Shown here: positions 1-31,523 of the stretch, piece after piece
How positions within the stretch are numbered: position 1 is the first letter of the stretch
How the letters are laid out: every line of letters starts with the position of its first letter
DNA from: Escherichia phage vB_Eco_F27
Direction: 5' to 3' (one strand)
Length of the DNA: 64,000 bases
Sequence record: OP870146.1
The notes under the pieces: model-generated
What the model was told of the DNA's origin: nothing
The model's database searches: none
Seen by the model: the letters and a program-made list of their open reading frames with translations, nothing else
Program-made: the position numbers and the translations under genes

Positions 1-2206
1 CCGCTTCCACGGCCTTCATGAATTTAACGATTTGAGCGACCTGTTCTTTGGAAAGAGTACCACGTCGTCCCATGTAGTCTGACACAATATGATAATTGGT
101 TTCGAATTCAATAACCATTTTATCATCATTATCGTAAGCATTATCTTTAAGCTTATCGAAAATTTTAGCACACAATTCTAACTTCTTATTCAGGTCTCGG
201 TTAGTAGCACCTGAGAATCGATTCCATCCCCAACGATTATTTACTGTTGAAAGTTTTGCAAAGTCTTTACTGATTTCTTTGTTCTTAGAGCTAAAATACT
301 TACTAAGGAAGTTAAGCTCTTCATTACGAGTAATATGATTCAAATAAGGCTGTGCTCTACGACTTGGTGATACATACTCATCATAATCCACTTTATCAAT
401 TAGCGTAATATAGTCATTAATTGATTTTTCGAACAAGCATTCTACTTCACCAAGTTTACGAACTTTCTTAGCAATCTGTGGACGGACTACAGTGAACTCT
501 TTAATACCTGACAAATCAGCAATACGGGTCAAGAAATTGGAGTCATAGTTCAACCAACCTTTATCTGCGTCAAGACATTCAGCATTAGAACGATTACGAA
601 CTATAGCATAACCTTGGATTTCATCAGCTTCACTCGCTGGAATAAAGAGATCTTCTGATACCCAAACATCGTTTTCATTCTTAAAGAACCGATGAGCACT
701 TGGGGATTTAGGACGAGGCCCATTAGAACGAGTCTTGACTTCAATCCATGGCTTAACGATTTGTAAAAGCTCTGAAGTCTTGTACATGTTAATGTTGTCG
801 CCATCAAAGATAACTTTAAGGCGTTCCAGAAGTTTCATTGCATCTTCGTCTGTGGGGTCAACGAATAGTACGCTTTTACCAAAACCGCGTGGAACTTTAC
901 CGGTTAATTTAACCTCGTCTTTAGACATTTCAATTGAATTAAGAGCTCGCATTAATGGAACGCGTCCCTTAACGTCATCAATAACAATTTCAACGTTTTT
1001 AATGTTAATGCCAATCAGACTGTTAATTGAAATAGTTGCCGATGAGCTTCCGCTTTCACGAATACGACGAAGTCGTGGGTCTGAAACGATATCATATACA
1101 ACACCAAGGTTGCACCATTCAGGTCCCATTTTAAAACGTTTGTACAACTCGGAATAAGTTAGTTGTTCTTTAGAGTATTTCAGTGATTCAATATTAGACC
1201 CAGCCTTTTCCATGTATTTACGAGCGGTATAGCCAAGAGAATCAATTTCACGGAACACATGACGTGGGTATTTACAATCAATCCATTTCTTAGAATCTTC
1301 AGCGAACAATTTAGCATCGATTTCTGCAACGCGTTTATGGATATTTGCTACTGTACGTTTATCAAACGACAATGCTTCACGAGACGGGGCCACATCTAGT
1401 TCACCCATAGGGAATTTAATATAAGCTGTAGTGCATCGCGTCATCATCCATGTTTGTTCTTTAATAACACTTCCAATTGGATATACAATACCACCATAAA
1501 CAGCCATGATATTACCACGTTCACCCCATGGAGCTTCCTTGGCCAAATATACATCGTCAAATTCTGGGAAGTATTTAATATCTTTAACACCGCGAACTTC
1601 TGCAATATCACCTAGAGGACGCATAACATATGCAATTTCGGATGCGAACTTTTCAAAATCTTCCGGGTTAACCGGTACAACTACTTCTACACCCGTACGG
1701 TCATCAGGACCCATCTTATCTACGAAGGTTGGCTTAATCTGTGGACCACTGTCATCTTGATAAATTACATAACCACGAACTTCACCATTGTGATAAGACG
1801 TAAGGTTAAACGTATCAGTATATGCTAGCGGAGCTTTAGAACCGAGTCCGAATCCACCAATGAAATCGTTACTCGATGTTTTAGTTGAAGCAAAATATGA
1901 GTTATAAATTCCTGGCTCTTCGTCATTACCTCGAATGGTGAAATCGCTCATACCAGGACCAAAGTCTCGAACTACAAAACGTGGGTCTAAACGACCTGGT
2001 GCCTGAACAATAAACTTATCAGTGCAACCATTAAGAATTTGCCCATCGATACAGTTTGTGATTAATTCACGTACACAAGCCAATTCTTTATTTGTATAAA
2101 GGTCATTAGACAAAATCTTATAAACTTTGCTATTGCCTTGAATAGTGAATGCTGTGCTCTTACCGCCTGAACCAATAATCGTTTCTTTAGCCGTTTCAAT
2201 AATCAT
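1..2206 (-). CDS. rIIA: rIIA protein, partial (C-terminus lies beyond window start)
   Basis: Open reverse-strand frame from ATG at 2204-2206 (MIIETAKETIIGSGGKS...DFGPGM...) to the window edge, >735 codons; not in ORF track because it has no in-window stop; position next to gene 39 as in T4. Confidence 0.8.
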   Translation of the reverse strand, partial: MIIETAKETIIGSGGKSTAFTIQGNSKVYKILSNDLYTNKELACVRELITNCIDGQILNGCTDKFIVQAPGRLDPRFVVRDFGPGMSDFTIRGNDEEPGIYNSYFASTKTSSNDFIGGFGLGSKAPLAYTDTFNLTSYHNGEVRGYVIYQDDSGPQIKPTFVDKMGPDDRTGVEVVVPVNPEDFEKFASEIAYVMRPLGDIAEVRGVKDIKYFPEFDDVYLAKEAPWGERGNIMAVYGGIVYPIGSVIKEQTWMMTRCTTAYIKFPMGELDVAPSREALSFDKRTVANIHKRVAEIDAKLFAEDSKKWIDCKYPRHVFREIDSLGYTARKYMEKAGSNIESLKYSKEQLTYSELYKRFKMGPEWCNLGVVYDIVSDPRLRRIRESGSSSATISINSLIGINIKNVEIVIDDVKGRVPLMRALNSIEMSKDEVKLTGKVPRGFGKSVLFVDPTDEDAMKLLERLKVIFDGDNINMYKTSELLQIVKPWIEVKTRSNGPRPKSPSAHRFFKNENDVWVSEDLFIPASEADEIQGYAIVRNRSNAECLDADKGWLNYDSNFLTRIADLSGIKEFTVVRPQIAKKVRKLGEVECLFEKSINDYITLIDKVDYDEYVSPSRRAQPYLNHITRNEELNFLSKYFSSKNKEISKDFAKLSTVNNRWGWNRFSGATNRDLNKKLELCAKIFDKLKDNAYDNDDKMVIEFETNYHIVSDYMGRRGTLSKEQVAQIVKFMKAVEA

Positions 2207-2218
2207 ATTTTTCTCTCA

Positions 2219-2419
2219 TCACAAATTACGTTTAAAAATTTCTGCTACTTCAAGAAGTTCTTCTTTAGTAGCTGTATCGGTTTGTATTTTATATCGAATT
2301 TCTTTAAAGCGTTCTTTAAAGGACTCTGCTGACTCAATATCAAAAAATCTTTGGATAAGCCGGAATTCCCGGAGCACTGCTTTATCAAAAAGTTCCAAGT
2401 CCACGTTATATGTTCTCAT
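2219..2419 (-). CDS. small hypothetical protein (rIIA.1 position)
   Basis: 66-aa ORF directly upstream of rIIA on same strand. Confidence 0.45.
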   Translation of the reverse strand: MRTYNVDLELFDKAVLREFRLIQRFFDIESAESFKERFKEIRYKIQTDTATKEELLEVAEIFKRNL

Positions 2420-2511
2420 AATATTCTCTTCAGTAGATTCCTAGGGCACTATTACTAAAGACTATATAATCTATCATCTTATGTGTAATAGTGCCTCAGG
2501 CTATTCAGGAT

Positions 2512-3612
2512 TTACGCTGTGAAGATTTTATCCCACATCGCAACAACTGCATCTCGATTATACTTCTTCCATACTGCTTCAGCACGTTTAACTCGAGCTT
2601 CGTATGTGTCAGTAAATTCTAATACAGCTTTTGTGTAAAGCGCAACTACTTCTTTCTTAGGAGTAGAGGAATCAATTTCTACACGCACAGTATCTGGGTC
2701 GTATTCAAATGTCGCATGAGGATAATCCTTAAAAACTAACTGGATTACAGGGACACCTTTAGAGATGGCTTCAATAGAACTATTCTCTACCGTACCTGTG
2801 TCAGGACACGTATTAATAAGTGCTTTAGCTGTTTTAAGACGTTCCATGATTTCACTGTGTGGAGCATCAATAATAACAGGATACTTAGCCGGTGGTGCCC
2901 ATTTGCTTGGACAATAACCAATACCATTTTCGCCTAGTGCTTTAATCGCTTCAAGAGCAACATCAGTACGACGCATTTTAGTGTCATAACGTTGTGCACT
3001 AATAATCAGATCAGTCGCCGGAAGAACTTCAGGTTTCTCATTCAAACAAATAACCGGATAATCTTCGGCTTCAAACAACGGATTTGCTCGCCAATAATCA
3101 TAATCAATTTTGTCAGTCAGACCTGAAGTCATATAACAATATTTGCGTTCAAATTCACGGAAGGCTTTAGTAGGAGCATAACTCTTACCGCCATTCTTAT
3201 GAATTTGAATAGTCTGGTCCCAAATTTGAACAATGCCACGAGATACCGGTTCAAATGGTGTTGCCATAAAATTCTTATGAACTTTAGAGAGACCTGCGTC
3301 TTTAATTGCCTGAACGGTTAGTTTAGTCGGTTCCATAGTAACAACAAAATCGTATTCATGGATGCCGGCTAGTTCAACAATCTTACGAGCCATAGTATAA
3401 CTCATACCTAGACTGAATTTTGTCAGATGACCAACAGGATGATGATTAACCTTCCAATCACCAAACGTGTCATTATCAAAACCGATATAATCAATATCGG
3501 CACCAATAGAAACTAAATATTTCAACACATTTAAATGTACTGCTTCAAGACCACCTTGTACACGGTCAGGATTAAATGGGACTGCACGAGATGGGATAAA
3601 CATAACTTTCAT
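2512..3612 (-). CDS. putative glycosyltransferase, GT-B fold (candidate DNA hmC glycosyl/arabinosyl-transferase)
   Basis: 366 aa; N-terminal MKVMFIPSRAVPFNPDRVQGGLEAVHLN and C-terminal ENSSIEAISKGVPVI resemble GT1/GT-B donor-binding motifs; sits between rIIA and gene 39 where T4 has gene 60 and mobA. Confidence 0.55.
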   Translation of the reverse strand: MKVMFIPSRAVPFNPDRVQGGLEAVHLNVLKYLVSIGADIDYIGFDNDTFGDWKVNHHPVGHLTKFSLGMSYTMARKIVELAGIHEYDFVVTMEPTKLTVQAIKDAGLSKVHKNFMATPFEPVSRGIVQIWDQTIQIHKNGGKSYAPTKAFREFERKYCYMTSGLTDKIDYDYWRANPLFEAEDYPVICLNEKPEVLPATDLIISAQRYDTKMRRTDVALEAIKALGENGIGYCPSKWAPPAKYPVIIDAPHSEIMERLKTAKALINTCPDTGTVENSSIEAISKGVPVIQLVFKDYPHATFEYDPDTVRVEIDSSTPKKEVVALYTKAVLEFTDTYEARVKRAEAVWKKYNRDAVVAMWDKIFTA

Positions 3613-3627
3613 AATTAAGCCTTATTA

Positions 3628-3656
3628 AAATTAAAATGAAGCTCCCGAAGGAGCTT
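3628..3656 (-). terminator. rho-independent terminator (UUCG tetraloop)
   Basis: AAGCUCC-UUCG-GGAGCUU then UCAUUUUAAUUUU on minus transcript; between HNH and glycosyltransferase genes. Confidence 0.55.
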
Positions 3657-4452
3657 AGGACATCCAACACATTTTATAACCTTTGCAGGTTCTGTTAGGA
3701 TTATTTAATGCTTTCAATATATTAGAAGACCCTATATCTAAATACTCCCTTAATTCATAAAGATAGTTAAAATCAATAGTTTCACCTGTTTTTACACTTG
3801 TGATTCTTATAGGCCTTCTTTCATATTTAGATTTATACAACTCTCTAGTCTTAGCTTTAGTTTCTTCCGACCTAGGAGTGTATGGTTTAAATCCTTTTGT
3901 TTTAAATGTTTCCATTCTTGATTTAGTTATTTTATCCTGGTGTTCTTTTGTTTTTACAGGTGCTTTTCGCCCATTCTCCCAAGATAACTTATTGGCCTGT
4001 ATTATTTTATCTATTGCTTCTTGCGTATGAGTTTTACCATAAAATGGATTTAATTCGCCTATACGTTGTGAAGCAATATGTGACATTAATTCTCTTGTTG
4101 CTTTAGTATGTTTTTTACCTTTAAATGGGTTGCCATTTTTAGCAATCCATTCTTTCATAAATCTAGAGTGCTCTTTAGAGAATTCTTGTTTAAGCCAATC
4201 ATAATCTCTAGAATTTCTAGCTCCCATGTAAAAAGCTCTAATAGCCATAAGCATAGAACGGTTCTTATGAATTTTATAAAGCAATAAATGGGCGATAAAA
4301 TGCTCTCTAGGGGTCAATTTAACTAGATTTGATTTAGCATTACTCCCGCCCATAGATTTTGGCAATATATGATGTGTCTCAGTATAATTAGGAATAATGC
4401 TGCGGTTTTTAGCCGCAGCGATAAGTTTATCATAAATTTTACGATAATTCAT
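3655..4452 (-). CDS. HNH homing endonuclease with NUMOD3-type DNA-binding repeats
   Basis: HHILPKSMGGSNAKSNLVKLTPREHFIAH HNH motif; repeated GNPFKGKKHTKATRELMS / NPFYGKTHTQEAIDKI modules; start may be 4467 or 4452. Confidence 0.75.
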   Translation of the reverse strand: MNYRKIYDKLIAAAKNRSIIPNYTETHHILPKSMGGSNAKSNLVKLTPREHFIAHLLLYKIHKNRSMLMAIRAFYMGARNSRDYDWLKQEFSKEHSRFMKEWIAKNGNPFKGKKHTKATRELMSHIASQRIGELNPFYGKTHTQEAIDKIIQANKLSWENGRKAPVKTKEHQDKITKSRMETFKTKGFKPYTPRSEETKAKTRELYKSKYERRPIRITSVKTGETIDFNYLYELREYLDIGSSNILKALNNPNRTCKGYKMCWMS

Positions 4453-6272
4453 TATCCTAGCATCCAATCTTTACGGAGTTCAGGGTCGTTACCCATGAGC
4501 ATTTCAAATAGTTCTTTCCAATTTTCAGGAAGTTTAACTACGTCGTACACAGGGTTTTGAATCATTTCTTTATATTCATCTCGCTGAAGTGAGCCCAATC
4601 CCTTGATGTATCGAATACTATGCTTAGGCAGTGTATCTTTAACTTCTTCATACTCAGCTACAGTATAAAACCATTTTTGAGTTTTGCCAATTTGTGCAAT
4701 AATTACAGGCGTTTTAACAAAGCGAATACGTCCTTGTTCAAACAATTCAGGCCAATTACTAAAGAAAGCAAGCAAAGCCGGATAGATACTTCCAAGACCG
4801 TCATGATCGGCATCGGTCATAATTGCAATATTACGATAGTTCGTATTCTCTGCCTTTTCACCAAGAATAAGACCCGTGATAGCACAGATATCGAAGAGCT
4901 CTTTGTTCTTCATCATATCAGCATATGACATACCCCAGCTATTCATCACCTTACCACGTAATGGGAATCCGCCGTGTAGTTCACGGTCACGAACATCAAT
5001 GAGATAACCAATTGCCGAATCACCTTCTGTTAAGAACAATGTCGTATCTGCATCTTTACCACATTGGTTAGCTTTAATATGCTTATGAACCTTAGCTTTA
5101 GTTGCCTTTTTAGCTGCTTTAGTTTCTGCAGCCTTTTCTGCTGCCAATTTACGAGCTAATGCGGCTTCAACAATAGGCATAATCAAGGCTTCGTTTTTAA
5201 GAAGCGCCTGAGCAATTTTCTTAGCATCTAATTGGATATGATTACGAATATCACCATACGTTGACGTTAAACGTTCTTTAGTCTGAGAATCAAAACGCAT
5301 GTTGCTCATGTCTCTAATAAACATCAACATTGTGAGGCATTCTTTAACACGAGCTTTAGTGACTTCAATACCCTTATATTTCTTTTTAATACCCGGCAAA
5401 AGATGTTCGCAGATATCGTCCATTACACATTCAACATGATGTCCACCATTTTTAGTATGGATGTTATTCACATAAGTTAAATGACGGAAGCCATCTGGTG
5501 ATGTTGTGAATGCTATAGAGACTTTATCATTTTCTTGAATGATGTTATCTTCACCAAATTGTTTAGCAAATCGTTTAAAATTACCATCAACCTTTTTACC
5601 ATTAAATGTGAACTTGATATCAGGATAAACGACTGCCAATGTTTGAAGTCGGTCTAAAGTAATATCTAAATAAATTTGAGATAAATTATGCTCTTCAAAT
5701 GAAGAGAAATCAGGAGTGAAGATTACTTTAGTGCCTTTACCTTTAGATTTCTTAGAAGACCATGATTTGTTTTCCATTCCGTTTGAACAGTTAACAGTGA
5801 TTTCGTTTTCGCCATCTGACGTGATGCCTGTAAACAACGTAGAGAAGATATTAGTTAAACTACTCCCGACGCCGTTCATACCACCAGTCTTGCGTTCAGA
5901 GTCATCACCAAAGTTACCACCAGCCTTTGGAATAGTCCAGGCTGCTACAGGCCCAGGAATTTGTTCACCTGTTTGGTCGGTAACTAAACCTTGAGGAATA
6001 CCACGTCCGTTATCTTCCACCGAAACTTGATTATTTTTAATTTGCACATCAATTTTATTTGCAAACTTAAATGATGTACGAATAGCTTCATCAACCGAGT
6101 TGTCAATAATCTCATCGATTAATTTAACCAGACCAGGAACATATTCAACTTGTTGATATTTACCAAACAAAAAACGCTCATGGGCTTCTTTAGCAGAAGA
6201 ACCAATATACATACCACTACGTTTCTTAATATGTTCTACATCTGACAATACCTTAATTTCATTTTTAATCAT
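4452..6272 (-). CDS. 39: DNA topoisomerase II large subunit (GyrB-like ATPase), unsplit
   Basis: 606 aa, MIKNEIKVLSDVEHIKKRSGMYIGSS..., GHKL ATPase and Toprim motifs; single continuous ORF covering what T4 splits into genes 39 and 60. Confidence 0.9.
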   Translation of the reverse strand: MIKNEIKVLSDVEHIKKRSGMYIGSSAKEAHERFLFGKYQQVEYVPGLVKLIDEIIDNSVDEAIRTSFKFANKIDVQIKNNQVSVEDNGRGIPQGLVTDQTGEQIPGPVAAWTIPKAGGNFGDDSERKTGGMNGVGSSLTNIFSTLFTGITSDGENEITVNCSNGMENKSWSSKKSKGKGTKVIFTPDFSSFEEHNLSQIYLDITLDRLQTLAVVYPDIKFTFNGKKVDGNFKRFAKQFGEDNIIQENDKVSIAFTTSPDGFRHLTYVNNIHTKNGGHHVECVMDDICEHLLPGIKKKYKGIEVTKARVKECLTMLMFIRDMSNMRFDSQTKERLTSTYGDIRNHIQLDAKKIAQALLKNEALIMPIVEAALARKLAAEKAAETKAAKKATKAKVHKHIKANQCGKDADTTLFLTEGDSAIGYLIDVRDRELHGGFPLRGKVMNSWGMSYADMMKNKELFDICAITGLILGEKAENTNYRNIAIMTDADHDGLGSIYPALLAFFSNWPELFEQGRIRFVKTPVIIAQIGKTQKWFYTVAEYEEVKDTLPKHSIRYIKGLGSLQRDEYKEMIQNPVYDVVKLPENWKELFEMLMGNDPELRKDWMLG

Positions 6273-6311
6273 GTTGTCTCCTCGTTATGAAGGTATTCTA
6301 TCATCCGAAAT

Positions 6312-6337
6312 CTAAAGCAAAAAGGGCCGAAGCCCTT
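6312..6337 (-). terminator. rho-independent terminator (UUCG tetraloop)
   Basis: AAGGGC-UUCG-GCCCUU then UUUUGCUUU. Confidence 0.6.
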
Positions 6338-6761
6338 ATTTAAATTTAATTTTCTGAAGTGCATCAATTGCAGCTAAACGCCCTTGTTCACTTTTAACTG
6401 TAATGACCACATCGCCTGATACGATCACCGAACCATCAACAAATTCTATAGAGCCTTTTTTGAAATCGACAGCTGTATCTGGTTCCGGAACTTCTTCAAA
6501 GAATTTAAATTCTGCACCATAAAGCAGAATATCACCTTGCATACTATGAATAGTTCGGCCATAATCGCCTACGGCTTCTACAGCAATAATCGAAACGCCA
6601 TAACCAATCATCTCTTCCACAATAAAATCTTTGGACAATAAAGTAGTATGCAGATTAGTATTAAGACGTTTACCAGTTGTATTAAGAATTCTCAAGAAAT
6701 TATCTTCTTGTCCTTTGATAATACGATATTTCTTACCAACTTCAAAACCTTTAAAAGCCAT
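6336..6761 (-). CDS. hypothetical protein
   Basis: 141-aa ORF, minus-strand operon context. Confidence 0.5.
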   Translation of the reverse strand: MAFKGFEVGKKYRIIKGQEDNFLRILNTTGKRLNTNLHTTLLSKDFIVEEMIGYGVSIIAVEAVGDYGRTIHSMQGDILLYGAEFKFFEEVPEPDTAVDFKKGSIEFVDGSVIVSGDVVITVKSEQGRLAAIDALQKIKFK

Positions 6762-24970: not shown

Positions 24971-25519
24971 TTAACGAGCCCATTTGATAATTTCTGTAAT
25001 CAAATAATTACGTTCGCTTGCATTAAATCCTATAACTTTGTTAGCACCATCATGATTAAGTAATTGATACGTTTGGATTTTGTTATGAATTGCAAACTCT
25101 TCAAAATGTGAAATGACTGTATTAAAACCGAATGAAGACAAAGTAATAAGGTCGTCTTCAAAACTTTCAGTCATTTCGTTACGTGTTAAAATAATTGTGA
25201 ACACATCATGGTTTTGGCAAAGACGAACATAATCCTGCTCATAAACATCAAGAACAGAGTCCGCATCTTGTCGAATACGTCCATAAACCCAGTTACTAAT
25301 ATATCCACGGTCTAACAGATAAATCTTAGTAGGGTCTAAATAATTCAACATCGTTTCGAAACAACCAACTTCGTTTCGAGACTTAACATCGAAACGTCCA
25401 TCAACCGTTCGTTTAGGGAAATCAATCTTTACATATCTTTCACTAATTTCCATTATGTCATTAATGAAAGTTGTTTTACCAGCATTATCCGGGCCATCTA
25501 CTAAAATAATTTTAGCCAT
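24971..25519 (-). CDS. P-loop nucleotide kinase, thymidylate-kinase-like
   Basis: Walker A ILVDGPDNAGKTT; LLDRGYISNWVYG resembles Tmk DRY/S motif; occupies the slot where T4 has beta-gt. Confidence 0.55.
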   Translation of the reverse strand: MAKIILVDGPDNAGKTTFINDIMEISERYVKIDFPKRTVDGRFDVKSRNEVGCFETMLNYLDPTKIYLLDRGYISNWVYGRIRQDADSVLDVYEQDYVRLCQNHDVFTIILTRNEMTESFEDDLITLSSFGFNTVISHFEEFAIHNKIQTYQLLNHDGANKVIGFNASERNYLITEIIKWAR

Positions 25520-25520
25520 T

Positions 25521-26420
25521 TTATTCCTCGATTACAACATCTTCGTATTTAGGTATATTATACGGTGAAGAAATTAAAGCATTAAAGTAGATGAACTCAC
25601 CAAGACCTGGATGGAATACTTCTTCAGGATTTTCGAAATATTGAATCTTCGGACGTCCTTTAAGAATTTGATAGTACTCAGTTTTAGTTGGTTTAAAAAT
25701 TCGAATCAACGCTTCTTCAGGATACTTATTTCTGTCGAAGCTATTATTTGGATCGGTTATATAAAGCGGTTGACCTAATTGAATTGCGCATTCAACCACT
25801 TGTTCAAAACGATAGCATGGGTCACTAATTCGAAATGGATGAAAAATACCATCTAGATGAATAGGAGCCAAATCACCTACAAGACGCTGCATGATGGAAG
25901 GACGTATAACTTTCTGCGTTACGATAATCTTATTACCATCTGCACCAGCGTTAACCAGCACTTCTTTTTGACGTTCATTCAACACAGTAGTTTGAAGTGA
26001 ACGATTAACCGACAACATATCGGTTTTTAAGAATTCGTCAATATAAAAACGTGGTTTATTAGGGTCTGCAGTGATATTGAAATTGAATTCCACATCAAAA
26101 GCGCCGTCATATCCAGTGATATCTGTGATTAGAAAATCACAATCATAATAAGCAATTAATGAATCAACCACAAATTCATTTTCAGACCAGAAATATTTAC
26201 GAGTGTTATACGCGTTATCTTTATACCATAATGGAACAAACTTAAATTCTGGGAAAAGACGTTCACATTCTTTAATATCAGATGCATTACGTGGATATGT
26301 AATCACATCACCCGGATTAGCACGGTGCAAATGAAGTTGGAAGTTGCCATCCTTAAGGATAGCATACTGTCCAGTTTCATAAGACCGCATACTCAAAATA
26401 GGTACGCGGAAAATAGCCAT
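25521..26420 (-). CDS. hypothetical protein (candidate modification enzyme)
   Basis: 299 aa, no recognisable motif; in operon with gene 42 and Tmk-like kinase. Confidence 0.45.
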   Translation of the reverse strand: MAIFRVPILSMRSYETGQYAILKDGNFQLHLHRANPGDVITYPRNASDIKECERLFPEFKFVPLWYKDNAYNTRKYFWSENEFVVDSLIAYYDCDFLITDITGYDGAFDVEFNFNITADPNKPRFYIDEFLKTDMLSVNRSLQTTVLNERQKEVLVNAGADGNKIIVTQKVIRPSIMQRLVGDLAPIHLDGIFHPFRISDPCYRFEQVVECAIQLGQPLYITDPNNSFDRNKYPEEALIRIFKPTKTEYYQILKGRPKIQYFENPEEVFHPGLGEFIYFNALISSPYNIPKYEDVVIEE

Positions 26421-27136
26421 TAGTCAAGGAATCCTTTAACATAATCAAAATCACGTTCAAACACATGGGCACTTACCATGGTATGAGTATAATCACCAAC
26501 TTCTACACCGCATTCGTTAGCGATATAATGAAGTAATTTTCCTTGGAGATAAAAATCCAACTGCATAACAACAGCACAGTTCTGAGAACGCATATGACAA
26601 TGGGTATAAAGCTTACCATCACGAATATAATAAGTCACTGAGTCAGTACATGGATATTCAAGCGTTTCGTCTGAATCAAGCAAAGCCTGATCAGAACTTT
26701 CTAGAATTTGGAACACAACTCTTCGGGAGTTAGGCTTCTCTTTAAGTTCTTTTAGAAGAGCTGGTAATTGGGCCGCAATGCGAGGACCATAGAAAGTGTT
26801 GAAGTTCGCCGGCAAAACATCTGATTTTGGTTTAGAAATAAATTTAGCGACATTAGGATATGCCTTAAACGCTTCTTCTGCGTTGGTACCACCAGAAATC
26901 ATAAACTTCCAGAAGTCTTCGGCATATTCATAAGAGATGCGGTTAATACGTGGGTCGGTCATTTTGAATGATGATGGAGTGTCAACAACTACTGTCATAG
27001 ACCCAATTTCATTACAACGTCCAATACGAGAATCAGTTACGAATTCCGGGTTTTCTAAAATTTCACGATTGACTGCTTTAAATGCGGTTTGAAAATCTGC
27101 GGCTTTGATATATTTCATTGTGTTATGTTTTCCCAT
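26420..27136 (-). CDS. 42: dCMP hydroxymethylase (thymidylate-synthase superfamily)
   Basis: PCTDSVTYYIRDGKLYTHCHMRSQNCAVVM...HTMVSAHVFE matches the TS-fold active-site block (catalytic Cys, MRS, D); 238 aa close to T4 gp42 size. Confidence 0.8.
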   Translation of the reverse strand: MGKHNTMKYIKAADFQTAFKAVNREILENPEFVTDSRIGRCNEIGSMTVVVDTPSSFKMTDPRINRISYEYAEDFWKFMISGGTNAEEAFKAYPNVAKFISKPKSDVLPANFNTFYGPRIAAQLPALLKELKEKPNSRRVVFQILESSDQALLDSDETLEYPCTDSVTYYIRDGKLYTHCHMRSQNCAVVMQLDFYLQGKLLHYIANECGVEVGDYTHTMVSAHVFERDFDYVKGFLD

Positions 27137-27178
27137 GTTTACCTCAATACAATTTATTATATACTCAATTCGTAAAGC

Positions 27179-27418
27179 TTATTTGAATTTCTTGACAATG
27201 TTGATATAACGTAAAGCTTCAGCATCGATACTTCCAAGAACACTATGAAGAAATGCATCAGCGTAGTATTCCAATTGAACAGGTTCTTTAATCACTTTAG
27301 CCGCTTTAGTTTCAAACAGGCCCATCAGGGCCTTTTTAAGAATTTGTTCATTAGTGTTCAGTTTAATAGTCAAAATCTCTTCATTAAGTTGGTGGTTAAA
27401 AGTTTTTCTAGAAATCAT
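27179..27418 (-). CDS. hypothetical protein
   Basis: 79-aa ORF between Cys-rich enzyme and gene 42. Confidence 0.45.
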   Translation of the reverse strand: MISRKTFNHQLNEEILTIKLNTNEQILKKALMGLFETKAAKVIKEPVQLEYYADAFLHSVLGSIDAEALRYINIVKKFK

Positions 27419-28575
27419 TCCGGGTACCTCAAAGCGTCATCAGAGTTAGTTATATCAATAATAGATATAGAGTTTTCTGCTAACCCGTTTTTAGATAATT
27501 GACGTTTATAATATCTTTCACAATATGTACACGTCGTCCCGCAGATTTCATTAGCACAATCGAAATCTGGATGTCTGAACCACCTTTTTTCTAAAAAGCC
27601 ATCTAACAAAGAGGTTTCAATATTTACTGTATGTGAAAACTCGGTCTCATTTTCAAGAGTGAAAATAGTCTCTAAAGGCTTCCACAGTTCTAACAAATTA
27701 CCTTCAAACTTTTCAGAAGCGTATGCTTCAAGAACTTTCAAAATGTAGTCTGTGCTACCTGTACGTCCTGAAACTTTGAATTGAGTGATACCAATATCAT
27801 TATAAAGTTTCAAATCTTGAGGACGAACAAAACGAGTTCTCAACCAGTTAAATGGGTCTGTATCACGAGCTTTAATGCAGTGTTGCATTGGGTATCCGTT
27901 TAAGGATTTAGCATCATCAGCTGTAACATCAGTACTATGGAAAATATAGCAAGAGTCACGATAGCTACAATGTGTTGTATACCCTTTACCAGCATTAGAA
28001 CAGAACTCATTTACAAGAACTTCAAATATTATATTGTTCTTATTGCAAAACTCTGCTGCACGCTTCAGGAAAGAAACTGAACGGTTCTTATGAATTCCAC
28101 AGCAGACCTTTTTGATATTATATTGGTCATGCAAGTATTTGATTTGAGTTACAGCATCGACATGTAGAATTGTTGAAACTTCAATCTCAATGTCTTTATT
28201 GACTTCACGAACAATTTCCATAACAACAGGGTTAGCGATAGTAATACGCCATACGCCTATTGACCAAAGATACTGAACATAATCCTGAATAGCTTTCTTC
28301 TTCCACTCAACTAGTTCTCTTTTTGAACCAGGATTTATCGTGTTGAGTGTATAGTTAAAGCAAATACCTAATTCGTTACAACGTTTAACGTAATCTTCTA
28401 ACATCTTTTTGTCAACGTCAGGAAGCCTAAAATCAGGTCTGGCTGCTACAAAAGCCATTTCTCTTGTAGAGCCGTATACTTCGTTTATCAAGCTATTAGG
28501 ATAAGTTTTATTGAGCTCTACGATTTTATCAAGAAGAGCTAAATCAAAATTCGTTCCGATTTTAAAAGTATTCAT
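27415..28575 (-). CDS. Cys-rich hypothetical enzyme (possible Fe-S/metal cluster protein)
   Basis: 386 aa; FCSNAGKGYTTHCSYRDSC and C-terminal CANEICGTTCTYC (Cx4Cx3Cx2C); faint resemblance to peptidase-U32/TIM-barrel family. Confidence 0.45.
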   Translation of the reverse strand: MNTFKIGTNFDLALLDKIVELNKTYPNSLINEVYGSTREMAFVAARPDFRLPDVDKKMLEDYVKRCNELGICFNYTLNTINPGSKRELVEWKKKAIQDYVQYLWSIGVWRITIANPVVMEIVREVNKDIEIEVSTILHVDAVTQIKYLHDQYNIKKVCCGIHKNRSVSFLKRAAEFCNKNNIIFEVLVNEFCSNAGKGYTTHCSYRDSCYIFHSTDVTADDAKSLNGYPMQHCIKARDTDPFNWLRTRFVRPQDLKLYNDIGITQFKVSGRTGSTDYILKVLEAYASEKFEGNLLELWKPLETIFTLENETEFSHTVNIETSLLDGFLEKRWFRHPDFDCANEICGTTCTYCERYYKRQLSKNGLAENSISIIDITNSDDALRYPE

Positions 28576-28634
28576 TTTTTTTTTGCATCTCGCGTTAATT
28601 GGTGCGATGGTTTTTGCAGGTCTTACTTAAATTA

Positions 28635-29036
28635 TTATAGATTCGGTTTATATGATTTAAATGTTTCGAATTCGCCTTTATTCATAAGAGCTTTGAATTC
28701 GTCAGGACGCATAGCTTTGTCGTCGATAATCCAATCATATACTGGTTTATGTGTTAGCAAATTATGGTACTTCAAGCCAATGTTTGCCAAGTTCTGAATC
28801 AGACTTGGGAGAATGTCAATTGCTATACGACCAGGACCTACTGACTTCATACCGCGAGCAGTGTAAAGCGTTATGGTATGCCCTGCATCATACAGAGCAT
28901 TAATGGCAGACACCATTTCGACGTCTGGTTTGAAGTTCACGTAATCACGATTGTTATTCCACTCTGTTATACAATCATCGACATCAAAACAAAGATTAAG
29001 CATGTTTTCTACACGGTGCATTAGATTCGTTCCCAT
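28635..29036 (-). CDS. small HAD-family phosphatase, KdsC-like
   Basis: Motif I FDVDDCIT (same spacing as KdsC FDVDGVLT), motif II TLYTAR, Lys and terminal DD motifs. Confidence 0.6.
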   Translation of the reverse strand: MGTNLMHRVENMLNLCFDVDDCITEWNNNRDYVNFKPDVEMVSAINALYDAGHTITLYTARGMKSVGPGRIAIDILPSLIQNLANIGLKYHNLLTHKPVYDWIIDDKAMRPDEFKALMNKGEFETFKSYKPNL

Positions 29037-30706
29037 TGATGAGTGATATCGCCACCGATTGGACGATAGGAAACACCAGTTTCTTTATCAGTTAGTACCC
29101 ATTTACCAGGATTTTTTGTAATCAGAGTAGCCGTTACAGGTTCTGCTACGTCATAACTAATAGAGCCGTCTTGAAGTACACGGCCCATATTACGTAATTG
29201 CTTAGTCAGAAGTTCCATACCTTTATAATATGCGGCTACCGCTTTAAGTGGATTATTCTTGAAATAACCACCTAATGCAATCCAGATAATTGCCACTGCC
29301 AAATGATGATACTCGTTAAACGAACTCATCTTTCCATATTTGTAAACTAATGGATTGATGTTAATAGTCACATTACAAGTTGTTTCATCAATAGTAAACT
29401 GTCCCCAGGTCGGATTAGCGTTGAATTCATCATAACCTGAAACAGCATAAAGCACTTTAGCTTCATCATACAATTTTGGCCCGTAAATCTTTGTTTCGCC
29501 AAAATATCCACGAGGGTCGATAAATTTGACTTCGCCGTTATCAGTAATCATAGTATTACTGAAGTTCGGGTCACCATGAATAACAGAGTACTGTCCCTGA
29601 GAACGGTTATGATAACGAATAAGGTGTTCTAAAGCTTGTTTCAGCATTGGCTTCAGACGTCCAATCTTAGTGTAGTTCACATGTGTGATTTTACCAAATG
29701 AATCAATCAATGGTTGAATGCTTTCACAACGATCAATAACTTTCGTATAGAATTCTTTAGTGAAATCACGACGAACAGTTTCAGGACTTACAAAATAAGT
29801 GTCTGTGCTGAATTTCAGTGCATCTAAAATTGCATCAACAATTTGTGGACGAGCAAGACTTGATTTGGATTTAATATATTCAAATGCCGGCTTACCTTTA
29901 ATGCGTTCCATTTCAAAGTTATTTTCATTAACAGAAACTAACTGAGGGACTGAATCTGATTTCACTTTCAAATACCACGAAATCTCATCTTTCTGAAGAG
30001 CTCGGCCCTGTTCGGTTAATGCGAATTTAGTTACAGTTTCTTCACCAATTTCAACTGCATTAAAACTACGATTAAGTTCACGAACTTCATGAGCTTTTTC
30101 AAGTTTAGGCATATCACCTAAATCAATTAGATTCATAAGCTCTGATTTATTGAATGCGCTGGCGTAAAGGAATTCTACGAAATCACGTCCTTTGCAGTAT
30201 TCATGAATTTCCTCATCGGTAGAACCCATATAGAATTCCCAGTCTTTGAACTGATAAATTCCTACAACATTACCACCTGTTGAACCTACGTTAGTGATAT
30301 TTTCACCGTCGAAATTATATCGACATTCGTCACCCTTAACATAGATTGCGTTAACATTCCAAGACCATGAACCAAAATCAGGAATAATATCACACCAGTT
30401 AACAATTACGTTATGGCCGTCTAAATCTTTGTGTAATTTAGCAAGAGCATAAGCAGAACCATACGCTTCATCAACTGTACGAATAGTCACATTGAACCCT
30501 TCTTGCTCACAATAAGCTCGAACAGTTTCAGCAAATTTTGAATGAACTACTACAATAATTTCATCTGCGCCAAGGTCAGAATAAATTGTATACAAATTGC
30601 TCAGAATAGTGTCTTGTTTATAGTTAACAAGCACCTTAGGAATATGATGCGTTATTGGATATAAACGAGTTGCCAATCCAGCACCAAGAATAACAGCTTT
30701 TTTCAT
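29021..30706 (-). CDS. bifunctional sugar-1-phosphate nucleotidyltransferase / APH-type sugar kinase
   Basis: N-terminus ILGAGLATRLYPIT..PKVLV (RmlA/GlmU-type G-x-G-T-R-L); C-terminus HGDPNFSNTMITDNGEVKFIDPRGYFG (APH/choline-kinase Brenner and DFG-like motifs). Confidence 0.7.
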   Translation of the reverse strand: MKKAVILGAGLATRLYPITHHIPKVLVNYKQDTILSNLYTIYSDLGADEIIVVVHSKFAETVRAYCEQEGFNVTIRTVDEAYGSAYALAKLHKDLDGHNVIVNWCDIIPDFGSWSWNVNAIYVKGDECRYNFDGENITNVGSTGGNVVGIYQFKDWEFYMGSTDEEIHEYCKGRDFVEFLYASAFNKSELMNLIDLGDMPKLEKAHEVRELNRSFNAVEIGEETVTKFALTEQGRALQKDEISWYLKVKSDSVPQLVSVNENNFEMERIKGKPAFEYIKSKSSLARPQIVDAILDALKFSTDTYFVSPETVRRDFTKEFYTKVIDRCESIQPLIDSFGKITHVNYTKIGRLKPMLKQALEHLIRYHNRSQGQYSVIHGDPNFSNTMITDNGEVKFIDPRGYFGETKIYGPKLYDEAKVLYAVSGYDEFNANPTWGQFTIDETTCNVTININPLVYKYGKMSSFNEYHHLAVAIIWIALGGYFKNNPLKAVAAYYKGMELLTKQLRNMGRVLQDGSISYDVAEPVTATLITKNPGKWVLTDKETGVSYRPIGGDITHQWERI

Positions 30707-30747
30707 GTTGAAGTCCTCATTGGTAAGTAGGAGTATTGTACACTATT

Positions 30748-30891
30748 CTAGTTAAAGCATTCATACTTTGCTTGTAGTCCAATCATAATCCATCCAATTA
30801 CAAGTGTTGGAATCATTACTGGAGCCGTTAAGCTCCAGTAGATAGTCATGACAAGCATCAATAGTAAAAGTCCTATTGTTATTGCTTTCAT
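30748..30891 (-). CDS. small membrane protein
   Basis: 47-codon ORF not in track (MKAITIGLLLLMLVMTIYWSLTAPVMIPTLVIGWIMIGLQ...); ATGA overlap with SIS gene stop. Confidence 0.4.
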   Translation of the reverse strand: MKAITIGLLLLMLVMTIYWSLTAPVMIPTLVIGWIMIGLQAKYECFN

Positions 30892-31523
30892 TGCTCGCCT
30901 CGTAACATGGCACCTAGTGCACCACCTGGATGGAACTTAAGGAAATCATTAGAGGTAAATCCACGTTCAGACGAAAGGTTGATAGCAAACGTATCGATAA
31001 GCGCTAACAACAATGTAGTGGACATAGTCGGAGCCAGAGAATTCTCATCAACCTCTACTGCGATGCCTGCACAGAAAGAATAATCAAAAAGGGCTTCATT
31101 TTCTTGTGGAATGTCCGGGTTACAATGCAACAGAATCTGTTTGACGTTCGGTCGAATCATTTTAAGATGCTTAGCCACGCCTATCATTTCTTCAGTTTTA
31201 CCAGAACGACTAATATGAATCAACACGTCATTAGGCGCAATAAATCCTGCATCACCGTGAGAATAATGCCCAGTGTTCAAGTACATACTCGGGATACCGA
31301 GTGAAGCAAATGTCTCAGAAGCTTTAGTTGCAATATTAGCATTCTTACCAACACCTGTAATAATTACACGACTTTCATAATTACTCAGTCCCGGGCGTCG
31401 AAGAGTTTCTAGAATAGCATTATAACGAGCAGGGTTTTGACTAATTACTTTGGCCATAGCGGCCAAAGAAGAAGCTTGTTTTATGATTGCGTCAATAGCG
31501 ATAGTAATAGGAGTAGTTTTCAT
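30888..31523 (-). CDS. SIS-domain sugar-phosphate isomerase, arabinose-5-phosphate isomerase (KdsD/GutQ)-like
   Basis: VIITGVGKNANIA ... HGDAGFIAPNDVLIHISRSGKTEE ... APTMSTTLLLALIDTFA ... FHPGGALG match SIS motifs. Confidence 0.75.
   Translation of the reverse strand: MKTTPITIAIDAIIKQASSLAAMAKVISQNPARYNAILETLRRPGLSNYESRVIITGVGKNANIATKASETFASLGIPSMYLNTGHYSHGDAGFIAPNDVLIHISRSGKTEEMIGVAKHLKMIRPNVKQILLHCNPDIPQENEALFDYSFCAGIAVEVDENSLAPTMSTTLLLALIDTFAINLSSERGFTSNDFLKFHPGGALGAMLRGEQ

Follow-up and report, generated by a model that had tools for sequence, protein, structure and literature searches.

We analysed a 64,000-nucleotide stretch of the genome of Escherichia phage vB_Eco_F27 (sequence record OP870146.1; the whole stretch is hereafter called the window), focusing on two genes coded on the minus strand between rIIA.1 and gene 39, one for a 366-residue glycosyltransferase (GT) and the other for an HNH homing endonuclease (HNH). 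The source phage is a Mosigvirus (RB69-like); over the first 8 kb of the window, the identity to phage phiC120 is 97.7%, and 139 records span at least 80% of that segment. Read along the minus strand, the gene order is gene 39, the HNH open reading frame (ORF), a hairpin, the 366-residue ORF, rIIA.1 and rIIA. A first-pass annotation made from the sequence alone had placed both ORFs at this junction, and both are real: the GT is conserved at 95-100% amino acid identity in 155 phage records, and the HNH protein matches phrog_655 and the Pfam NUMOD3 profile. The features of the locus are as follows.

2512..3612, minus strand: 366-residue GT-B glycosyltransferase, ortholog of RB69 ORF003c/gp3 (proposed beta-arabinosyltransferase 2); ATG-initiated ORF.
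3655..4452, minus strand: HNH homing endonuclease, 265 residues from ATG; Pfam NUMOD3, phrog_655 and MobA alignment.
3661..4460, minus strand: 800-bp insertion with TGGATG repeats; alignment to HNH-less Mosigvirus alleles.
4455..4860, minus strand: 3' part of gene 39 that moves with HNH (co-conversion tract), haplotype ..KDWMLG-stop; identity to fPS-90 and F1.
3564..3612, minus strand: first 49 nt of the GT ORF, carried into Tequatrovirus with HNH; alignment.
4449..4454, minus strand: UAAUGA, in which the stop codon of gene 39 overlaps the start codon of HNH; read from the sequence.
3639..3656, minus strand: hairpin with a UUCG tetraloop and, after it, an interrupted U-tract, originally the 3' element of gene 39; folding.
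4399..4419, minus strand: G+C-rich terminator-like hairpin in the 5' end of the HNH ORF; folding.
4452..6272, minus strand: gene 39, fused, large subunit of topoisomerase II, 606 residues, no 39/60 split; GyrB and Toprim domains.
2219..2419, minus strand: rIIA.1; PF24210, E 2e-30.

The 366-residue protein is 100% identical to that of phage JM10 and 99.5% identical to RB69ORF003c (NP_861693.1). The first-pass annotation presented it as a new candidate; it is in fact RB69 ORF003c, which Thomas et al. proposed in 2018 as an arabinosyltransferase using hidden Markov model/HHpred and Phyre2 analyses (PMC6024577). The chains of PDB entries 9iqz and 9ir0 are ~98% identical to it over all 366 residues. 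Their substitutions are those of the HY126 protein, and the Foldseek library describes them as 'phage HY126 glycosyltransferase' and 'with UDP', with a release date of 2025-07-16. The HY126 enzyme was solved both in the presence and in the absence of UDP. UDP binding is indicated by the deposition of the ~98%-identical chain 9ir0 'with UDP', a statement taken from the description of the entry, not from its coordinates. Foldseek comparison of an AlphaFold model of the protein with solved structures retrieved 9ir0_A and 9iqz_A (99% identity, template modelling score 0.71, probability 1.0), followed by 288 chains at E<=0.001, led by the GT-B enzymes PimA, BshA, MshA and WaaG. The protein has a GT-B fold, composed of two Rossmann-like domains. 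A GT-B-like enzyme had been predicted at first pass, with the lack of a GT fold named as what would refute it; the fold was examined and is GT-B.

Its GT4-like membership rests on this fold, not on a sequence model. The Glyco_transf_4 signature was found only in a remote relative (P0015, E 1.7e-4 to the GT family profile), and the sole PHROG match of the protein is family 8302, of 'unknown function'. Beyond 9iqz and 9ir0, a PDB sequence search returned nothing, even with an 11-sequence profile. The family is tiny, with 12 representatives among 1.84 billion proteins in an exhaustive HMMER search and five clusters in a word-indexed search. Residues Q207-R208, R214, E276 and E281 (..TGTVENSSIEA..) are invariant in the family and, by their position, may correspond to the C-terminal acidic motif of GT4 and to the basic residues that contact the diphosphate. 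The spacing of the acidic motif is E-x4-E, versus E-x7-E in GT4.

The neighbouring endonuclease ORF is 270 codons long at its maximum (3655..4467, minus strand, from TTG), which is the length first annotated. An ATG at 4452 gives 265 residues and is the more likely start, since the database records annotate it and T4-type MobA aligns from that methionine. The N-terminal 71 residues are 63% identical to the nuclease domain of T4-type MobA, and the remainder is unrelated. The Pfam NUMOD3 profile matches in two stretches with 36.3 bits (cutoff 20.4), the Pfam HNH models reach 16-18 bits, under their cutoffs, and phrog_655 (homing endonuclease) is matched at E 2e-57. The ORF is intact, and its HH..N..H motif aligns with McrA. 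Residues 109-253 resemble, below threshold, the DNA-binding region of group I intron endonucleases (I-TevI-type, TIGR01453). As proposed at first pass, the protein is thus an HNH/NUMOD endonuclease and, judging by its sequence, an ordinary free-standing homing endonuclease of the Mob type, with an HNH domain, NUMOD3 repeats and a C-terminal DNA-binding region. The overlap of its start codon with the gene 39 stop suggests translational coupling to gene 39, through which HNH would probably be translated at a low level; nrdA/mobE of T4 has the same UAAUGA arrangement (PMC2988022).

Gene 39 is the host gene of the HNH insertion. The inserted segment is exactly 800 bp long (3661..4460) and bounded by 6-bp direct repeats, TGGATG, at 4466..4461 and 3666..3661. 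In HNH-less alleles, gene 39 ends with ..KEWMS-stop, and in the window with ..KDWMLG-stop; the HNH ORF ends with ..CWMS-stop, reusing the old gene 39 codons (W-M-S-stop), its stop and its hairpin. HNH is found at a minimum of 98.5% identity in 27 records. It is present in ~15 Mosigvirus phages, versus ~155 GT-bearing Mosigvirus records, and is missing from Bas46, from HY126 and from the majority of these GT-bearing records. HNH would presumably introduce a nick or cut close to the 3' end of gene 39 in alleles that lack it, those of the Bas46 type being candidate targets, and repair would then copy the endonuclease gene along with adjoining stretches of gene 39.

Over 4452..4640, the differences between HNH-linked and HNH-less alleles of gene 39 fall into two tight clusters, one (LQRDEYKE in the former, LEKSEYRE in the latter) ~150 nt ahead of the stop codon and the other within the final 50 nt. 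The recognition site of the endonuclease and substitutions conferring immunity may lie in these clusters. Seven HNH-less Mosigvirus records harbour the HNH-linked gene 39 haplotype. In the three that were read, OLB35, TH12 and LF82-4, ..KDWMLG-stop is followed by the 16-nt TTGATAGATGTCCTAA and then by the hairpin (extracted loci ~580-610; window 4466..3655). The TTGATAGATGTCCTAA segment looks like a scar of HNH loss, or else is possibly a pre-invasion site.

An HNH protein 99.2% identical in amino acid sequence is coded directly after gene 39 in the Tequatroviruses fPS-90 and F1, both of which lack the GT. The window is 60-80% identical to these two phages over most of gene 39, and 97-100% identical from ~4860 to 3564. 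This co-conversion tract of ~1.3 kb, located at ~2600..3850 of the extracted fPS-90 locus, comprises the 3' ~400 bp of gene 39, HNH, the hairpin and the initial 49 nt of the GT. In fPS-90, gene 39 is chimeric, with nt 1-~1400 97% identical to Tequatrovirus HY01 and nt ~1430-1818 97-100% identical to the window. In fPS-90 and F1, HNH is followed by the hairpin of Mosigvirus, by the ribosome-binding site of the GT and by the first 49 nt of its ORF. At CTGACC, a microhomology of 6 nt, this GT stub is joined to the final 26 nt of the native gene (..LRKEWMSQ-stop), which is intact in HY01, and the join creates a 24-codon chimeric ORF (MKVMFIPSRAVPFNPDLRKEWMSQ). The same junction occurs in eight records, corresponding to six Tequatroviruses (fPS-90, F1, FN, BYEP01, FL12 and CJY920), which suggests a single origin.

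Because a Mosigvirus tract that includes the GT stub abuts the leftover native end of the Tequatrovirus gene 39, the alignments set the direction of transfer as Mosigvirus to Tequatrovirus. RB69-like and T4-like lineages have been reported not to recombine (PMC6024577); the HNH footprints document natural DNA exchange between the two genera. On balance, we lean towards the view that HNH crossed a supposed barrier to recombination, passing from RB69-like phages, with di-arabinosyl-5-hydroxycytosine, into Tequatrovirus, where glucosylated hydroxymethylcytosine (hmC) is expected, along with ~400 bp of gene 39 and the 49-nt GT stub. A transfer driven by the endonuclease itself would require an enzyme able to recognise and cut its site in two chemically different hypermodified DNAs. 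In that case, homing endonucleases would represent a route by which genes flow between phage lineages otherwise closed to DNA exchange with each other.

These data bear on the alternative that HNH is an inactive relic or a domesticated, immobile gene, which we regard as unlikely. The activity of HNH is a prediction, and the empty site with a short footprint in OLB35, TH12 and LF82-4 is what loss of the gene would leave. However, the ORF has remained intact with its HH..N..H motif, and the HNH copies are 98.5-99.6% identical in two genera, versus 60-80% for the surrounding gene 39, which indicates a recent transfer.

The possible function of the GT was considered in the light of what is known of RB69 DNA, which contains beta-D-arabinofuranosyl-(1-3)-alpha-D-arabinofuranose ether-linked to 5-hydroxycytosine (5hoC), not arabinosyl-hmC (PMC13326640, PMC13390438). 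The hmC acceptor assumed at first pass must therefore be replaced, since the published base in RB69 and its relatives is 5hoC with alpha-linked arabinofuranose (Araf). In this pathway, 5-hydroxy-dCMP is made by a thymidylate-synthase homolog; two putative Mosigvirus transferases have been named, one of them inside the sugar cluster, and RB69 gp3 has been proposed to add the second, beta-1,3-linked Araf (PMC13326640, PMC13390438). Two further features of the window are relevant here.

24971..31523, minus strand: 5-hydroxy-dCMP/UDP-arabinofuranose cluster; ORFs, Pfam, and functions from PMC13326640.
25521..26420, minus strand: first arabinosyltransferase candidate, 299 residues, ortholog of RB69 gp46:47 and DLP3 gp79; sequence identity.

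The cluster is complete and lies between uvsX and the DNA polymerase gene, 21-29 kb from the GT; it corresponds to the distant nucleotide-sugar operon from which the first reading had the GT fed. It encodes a kinase-like ORF, the 299-residue GT1, a ThyA-like 5-hydroxy-dCMP synthase whose gene directly adjoins that of GT1, a U32-like ORF, a small ORF, a 561-residue NTP-transferase/kinase and a SIS isomerase, with Pfam matches to Thymidylat_synt, Peptidase_U32, NTP_transferase and SIS. The 299-residue GT1 is 99.3% identical to RB69 ORF046c/047c (gp46:47) and 46% identical to DLP3 gp79. It is the first candidate DNA glycosyltransferase of the window, and the 366-residue GT is the second, as had been surmised; BLASTP detected no similarity between the two. 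GT1 and the 561-residue NTP-transferase/kinase are both intact here and split by sequencing errors in the RB69 reference.

The two transferase families differ in distribution. The 299-residue enzyme was found in 348 phage records from many genera; LC53 and Thanatos, both reported to be mono-arabinosylated, are among them. In the phage collection, the 366-residue family is present only in Mosigvirus, as one copy, and in Acinetobacter phages, mostly as two copies, both paralogs being coded inside the arabinose cluster. RB69, Bas46 and NP are di-arabinosylated, and DLP3 is tri-arabinosylated. The copy number of the 366-residue family thus parallels the length of the arabinose chain, with no member in mono-, one in di- and two in tri-arabinosylating phages. 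Full-length comparison of the GT with DLP3 gp77 and gp76 gives 43% and 41% identity, respectively; in vitro, these two DLP3 proteins jointly extend the sugar chain on RB69 DNA by a third Araf, taken from UDP-Araf (PMC13326640).

On account of the homology with DLP3 gp76 and gp77, the presence of paralogs in the arabinose cluster and the phyletic pattern, our best reading is that the 366-residue GT is a second, chain-extending DNA arabinosyltransferase, for which we infer donor, acceptor and linkage. The D-arabinofuranose donor would be UDP-Araf supplied by the cluster at 24971..31523. The 299-residue transferase (25521..26420) would first put an arabinose on 5hoC; the 366-residue enzyme, acting on phage DNA after replication in a UDP-sugar-dependent manner, would then lengthen the chain by adding Araf to that first arabinose, yielding the di-arabinosylated cytosine of RB69-like phages.

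It is quite improbable that the 366-residue enzyme is instead the primary DNA arabinosyltransferase, which adds the first sugar. This was the 2018 proposal, in which Thomas et al. chose ORF003c as the arabinosyltransferase (PMC6024577), and Bas46 carries the annotation 'putative hmC-arabinosyltransferase'. Nevertheless, the single-arabinose phages LC53 and Thanatos have the 299-residue transferase and no member of the 366-residue family, the 299-residue gene is syntenic with the 5-hydroxy-dCMP synthase gene in the examined loci of all arabinosylating lineages and is annotated alongside a thymidylate synthase in many of the matching records, and the DLP3 homologs work on already arabinosylated DNA.

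A non-DNA acceptor of the GT, for instance a protein or part of the host envelope, appears very unlikely. The idea could be entertained from the nearest solved non-phage folds, PimA, BshA and MshA, which act on lipids and small molecules. Against it, the 12 representatives of the family are the only ones among 1.84 billion proteins, the family is restricted in the phage collection to phages with the 5hoC-arabinose pathway, and the DLP3 paralogs modify DNA in vitro.

The proposal made at first pass that the GT and HNH genes form one mobile cassette, in which the endonuclease spreads the GT among T4-like genomes, is hardly tenable: the two genes are adjacent and a 49-nt piece of the GT moved with HNH into Tequatroviruses, but the comparison of junctions showed that the GT is fixed in the genus, with or without HNH, in ~155 Mosigvirus records, that HNH is present in a minority (only ~15 of those phages) and also without the GT in Tequatrovirus, that six HNH-positive Tequatroviruses have only the 49-nt stub, and that the Acinetobacter GT homologs are coded within the arabinose cluster, not beside gene 39, and since only that stub moved with HNH, the cassette is refuted.

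Taken together, we consider it likely that the GT is a second DNA arabinosyltransferase and HNH an independent selfish homing endonuclease, the two being neighbours by happenstance. Several points weigh against this interpretation. Lee et al. detected no activity of the DLP3 transferases singly, with activity only when gp76 and gp77 were present together, and the action of a lone family member by itself in Mosigvirus is therefore an assumption. The GT4 structural relatives are retaining enzymes, yet the proposed product would be beta-linked on an alpha-linked first sugar. The Pfam and NCBIfam models, Glycos_transf_1 and Glyco_transf_4 among them, gave no match to the 366-residue protein, even at E<=1. 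The AlphaFold model, built from six sequences only, is weak (predicted local distance difference test score of 59.6), and it is therefore the solved, near-identical structure that carries weight in the fold assignment. As for HNH, its putative cleavage activity and target site are deduced only from the gene distribution and the co-converted flanks.

The transferase was already known and its crystal structure solved, and its likely role as a second arabinosyltransferase was already published. The present analysis brings nothing new on the biology of the enzyme; its small additions concern HNH, namely the insertion point, the cross-genus transfer with a GT stub, and the footprint allele. The annotation of the locus should be changed, with arabinosyl-5hoC rather than hmC as the presumed acceptor and the GT described as the second transferase, not the sole one. 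HNH, for its part, is a selfish element that spreads independently of the GT. The pathway to which the GT belongs makes arabinosylated cytosine, a hypermodification that protects RB69-like phages against restriction enzymes, the glycosylase Brig1 and some CRISPR systems (PMC13216743). Arabinosylation also bears on the use of RB69-like phages in therapy and engineering.

The hairpin between the two ORFs had been described as a strong terminator. It is present and terminator-like, but its strength was overstated. At 3656..3639, AAGCUCC-UUCG-GGAGCUU forms a 7-bp stem (centroid -10.5 kcal/mol) followed by an interrupted U-tract, and in its 58-nt context it is no better than shuffled sequences. The same hairpin directly follows the gene 39 stop in HNH-less Bas46, and the annotation of fPS-90 labels it 'terminator'. 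In the window it comes after the HNH stop codon, and we infer that it is at most a partial terminator. The GT start codon is separated from the HNH stop by a 42-nt spacer that contains only this hairpin and a ribosome-binding site, and the same 42 nt follow the gene 39 stop in HNH-less phages. A search for a GT promoter in this spacer and in the HNH ORF found nothing convincing; the sole convincing T4 middle-promoter-like motif is located upstream of gene 39, at ~6319, where fPS-90 has an annotated middle promoter. With no promoter of its own in the spacer, the GT would therefore be reached by read-through, probably as the last gene of the gene 39 transcript, read through the hairpin.

A second hairpin, GCUGCGG..CCGCAGC at 4419..4399, has a 7-bp stem with six G-C pairs and covers codons 12-18 of the HNH ORF. 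If functional, it would also reduce transcription of the downstream GT in HNH-positive phages. It is reminiscent of an internal terminator that has been reported in mobE (PMC2988022).

Other structured segments flank the two genes. Upstream of gene 39 (6285..6337, minus strand), a UUCG hairpin (6337..6322) immediately precedes the middle-promoter-like motif (TTTGCTTTA, 12 nt, TAGAAT); in fPS-90, both a terminator and a middle promoter are annotated at the corresponding site. A long stem-loop with a perfect 11-bp stem, GGCACUAUUAC/GUAAUAGUGCC, is located at 2443..2497 (minus strand), in the gap that separates the GT stop codon from the start of rIIA.1. The 96 nt around it (2420..2515) fold at -26 kcal/mol, with a z-score of -3.6 relative to shuffles. 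It is kept in Bas46, phiC120 and HY126, and an A-to-G change in the latter leaves a G-U pair. Rfam gave no match for this stem-loop, and the Rfam scan of 2000..6600 matched no known RNA.

The junction between rIIA.1 and gene 39 varies among T4-like genera. In the T4-type phage HY01, the same position shows 39 / mobA / 60 with the 50-nt bypass, in agreement with the statement in the first-pass annotation that T4 has gene 60 and mobA here. Dhakavirus JS98 has unannotated short ORFs at the junction and no transferase (extracted locus 2437..3024); a GT remnant was sought at this junction and not found, an unrelated short sequence being present instead. In Thanatos-1, the topoisomerase gene is split in the T4-like manner, and between its two parts lies an HNH gene, the product of which is 31% identical (extracted locus 969..3826). 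This gene was considered as a counterpart of the 3'-end arrangement and rejected, as it belongs to the T4-like split arrangement.

The closest known systems to the GT are RB69 ORF003c/gp3 and the HY126 GT, which are practically the same protein, of the same length and at the same position between rIIA.1 and gene 39. In the window, the HNH gene parts the GT from gene 39, whereas RB69, HY126 and Bas46 lack that gene; RB69 was counted as HNH-less from the identical genome coordinates of ORF003c and its absence from the 27 HNH-bearing records. DLP3 gp76 and gp77 belong to the same family as the window GT, and both systems are tied to the 5hoC-arabinose pathway. DLP3 has two tandem copies within the cluster and a tri-arabinoside, whereas the window has one copy ~21 kb away and RB69-like DNA stops at two sugars. 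The alpha- and beta-glucosyltransferases of T4 are likewise GT-B enzymes that use a UDP-sugar and act on a modified cytosine in phage DNA, and an HHpred relationship of RB69 ORF003c to them has been reported (PMC6024577). They differ in transferring glucose, in their acceptor, the hydroxymethyl group of hmC, and in their genome position, and the Pfam and PDB sequence searches detected no sequence similarity between them and the GT.

The HNH gene in turn has two T4-type counterparts. T4 MobA is likewise a free-standing Mob-type HNH protein associated with the gene for the large subunit of topoisomerase, and no dedicated promoter is evident for either gene. MobA divides gene 39 into separate genes 39 and 60, with a 50-nt bypass, whereas the HNH gene of the window lies at the extreme 3' end and leaves gene 39 whole. 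MobE of T4 and RB3, between nrdA and nrdB, shares with it the UAAUGA overlap, an early terminator-like hairpin and ~44% identity over the N-terminal half, and differs in its insertion locus and target gene.

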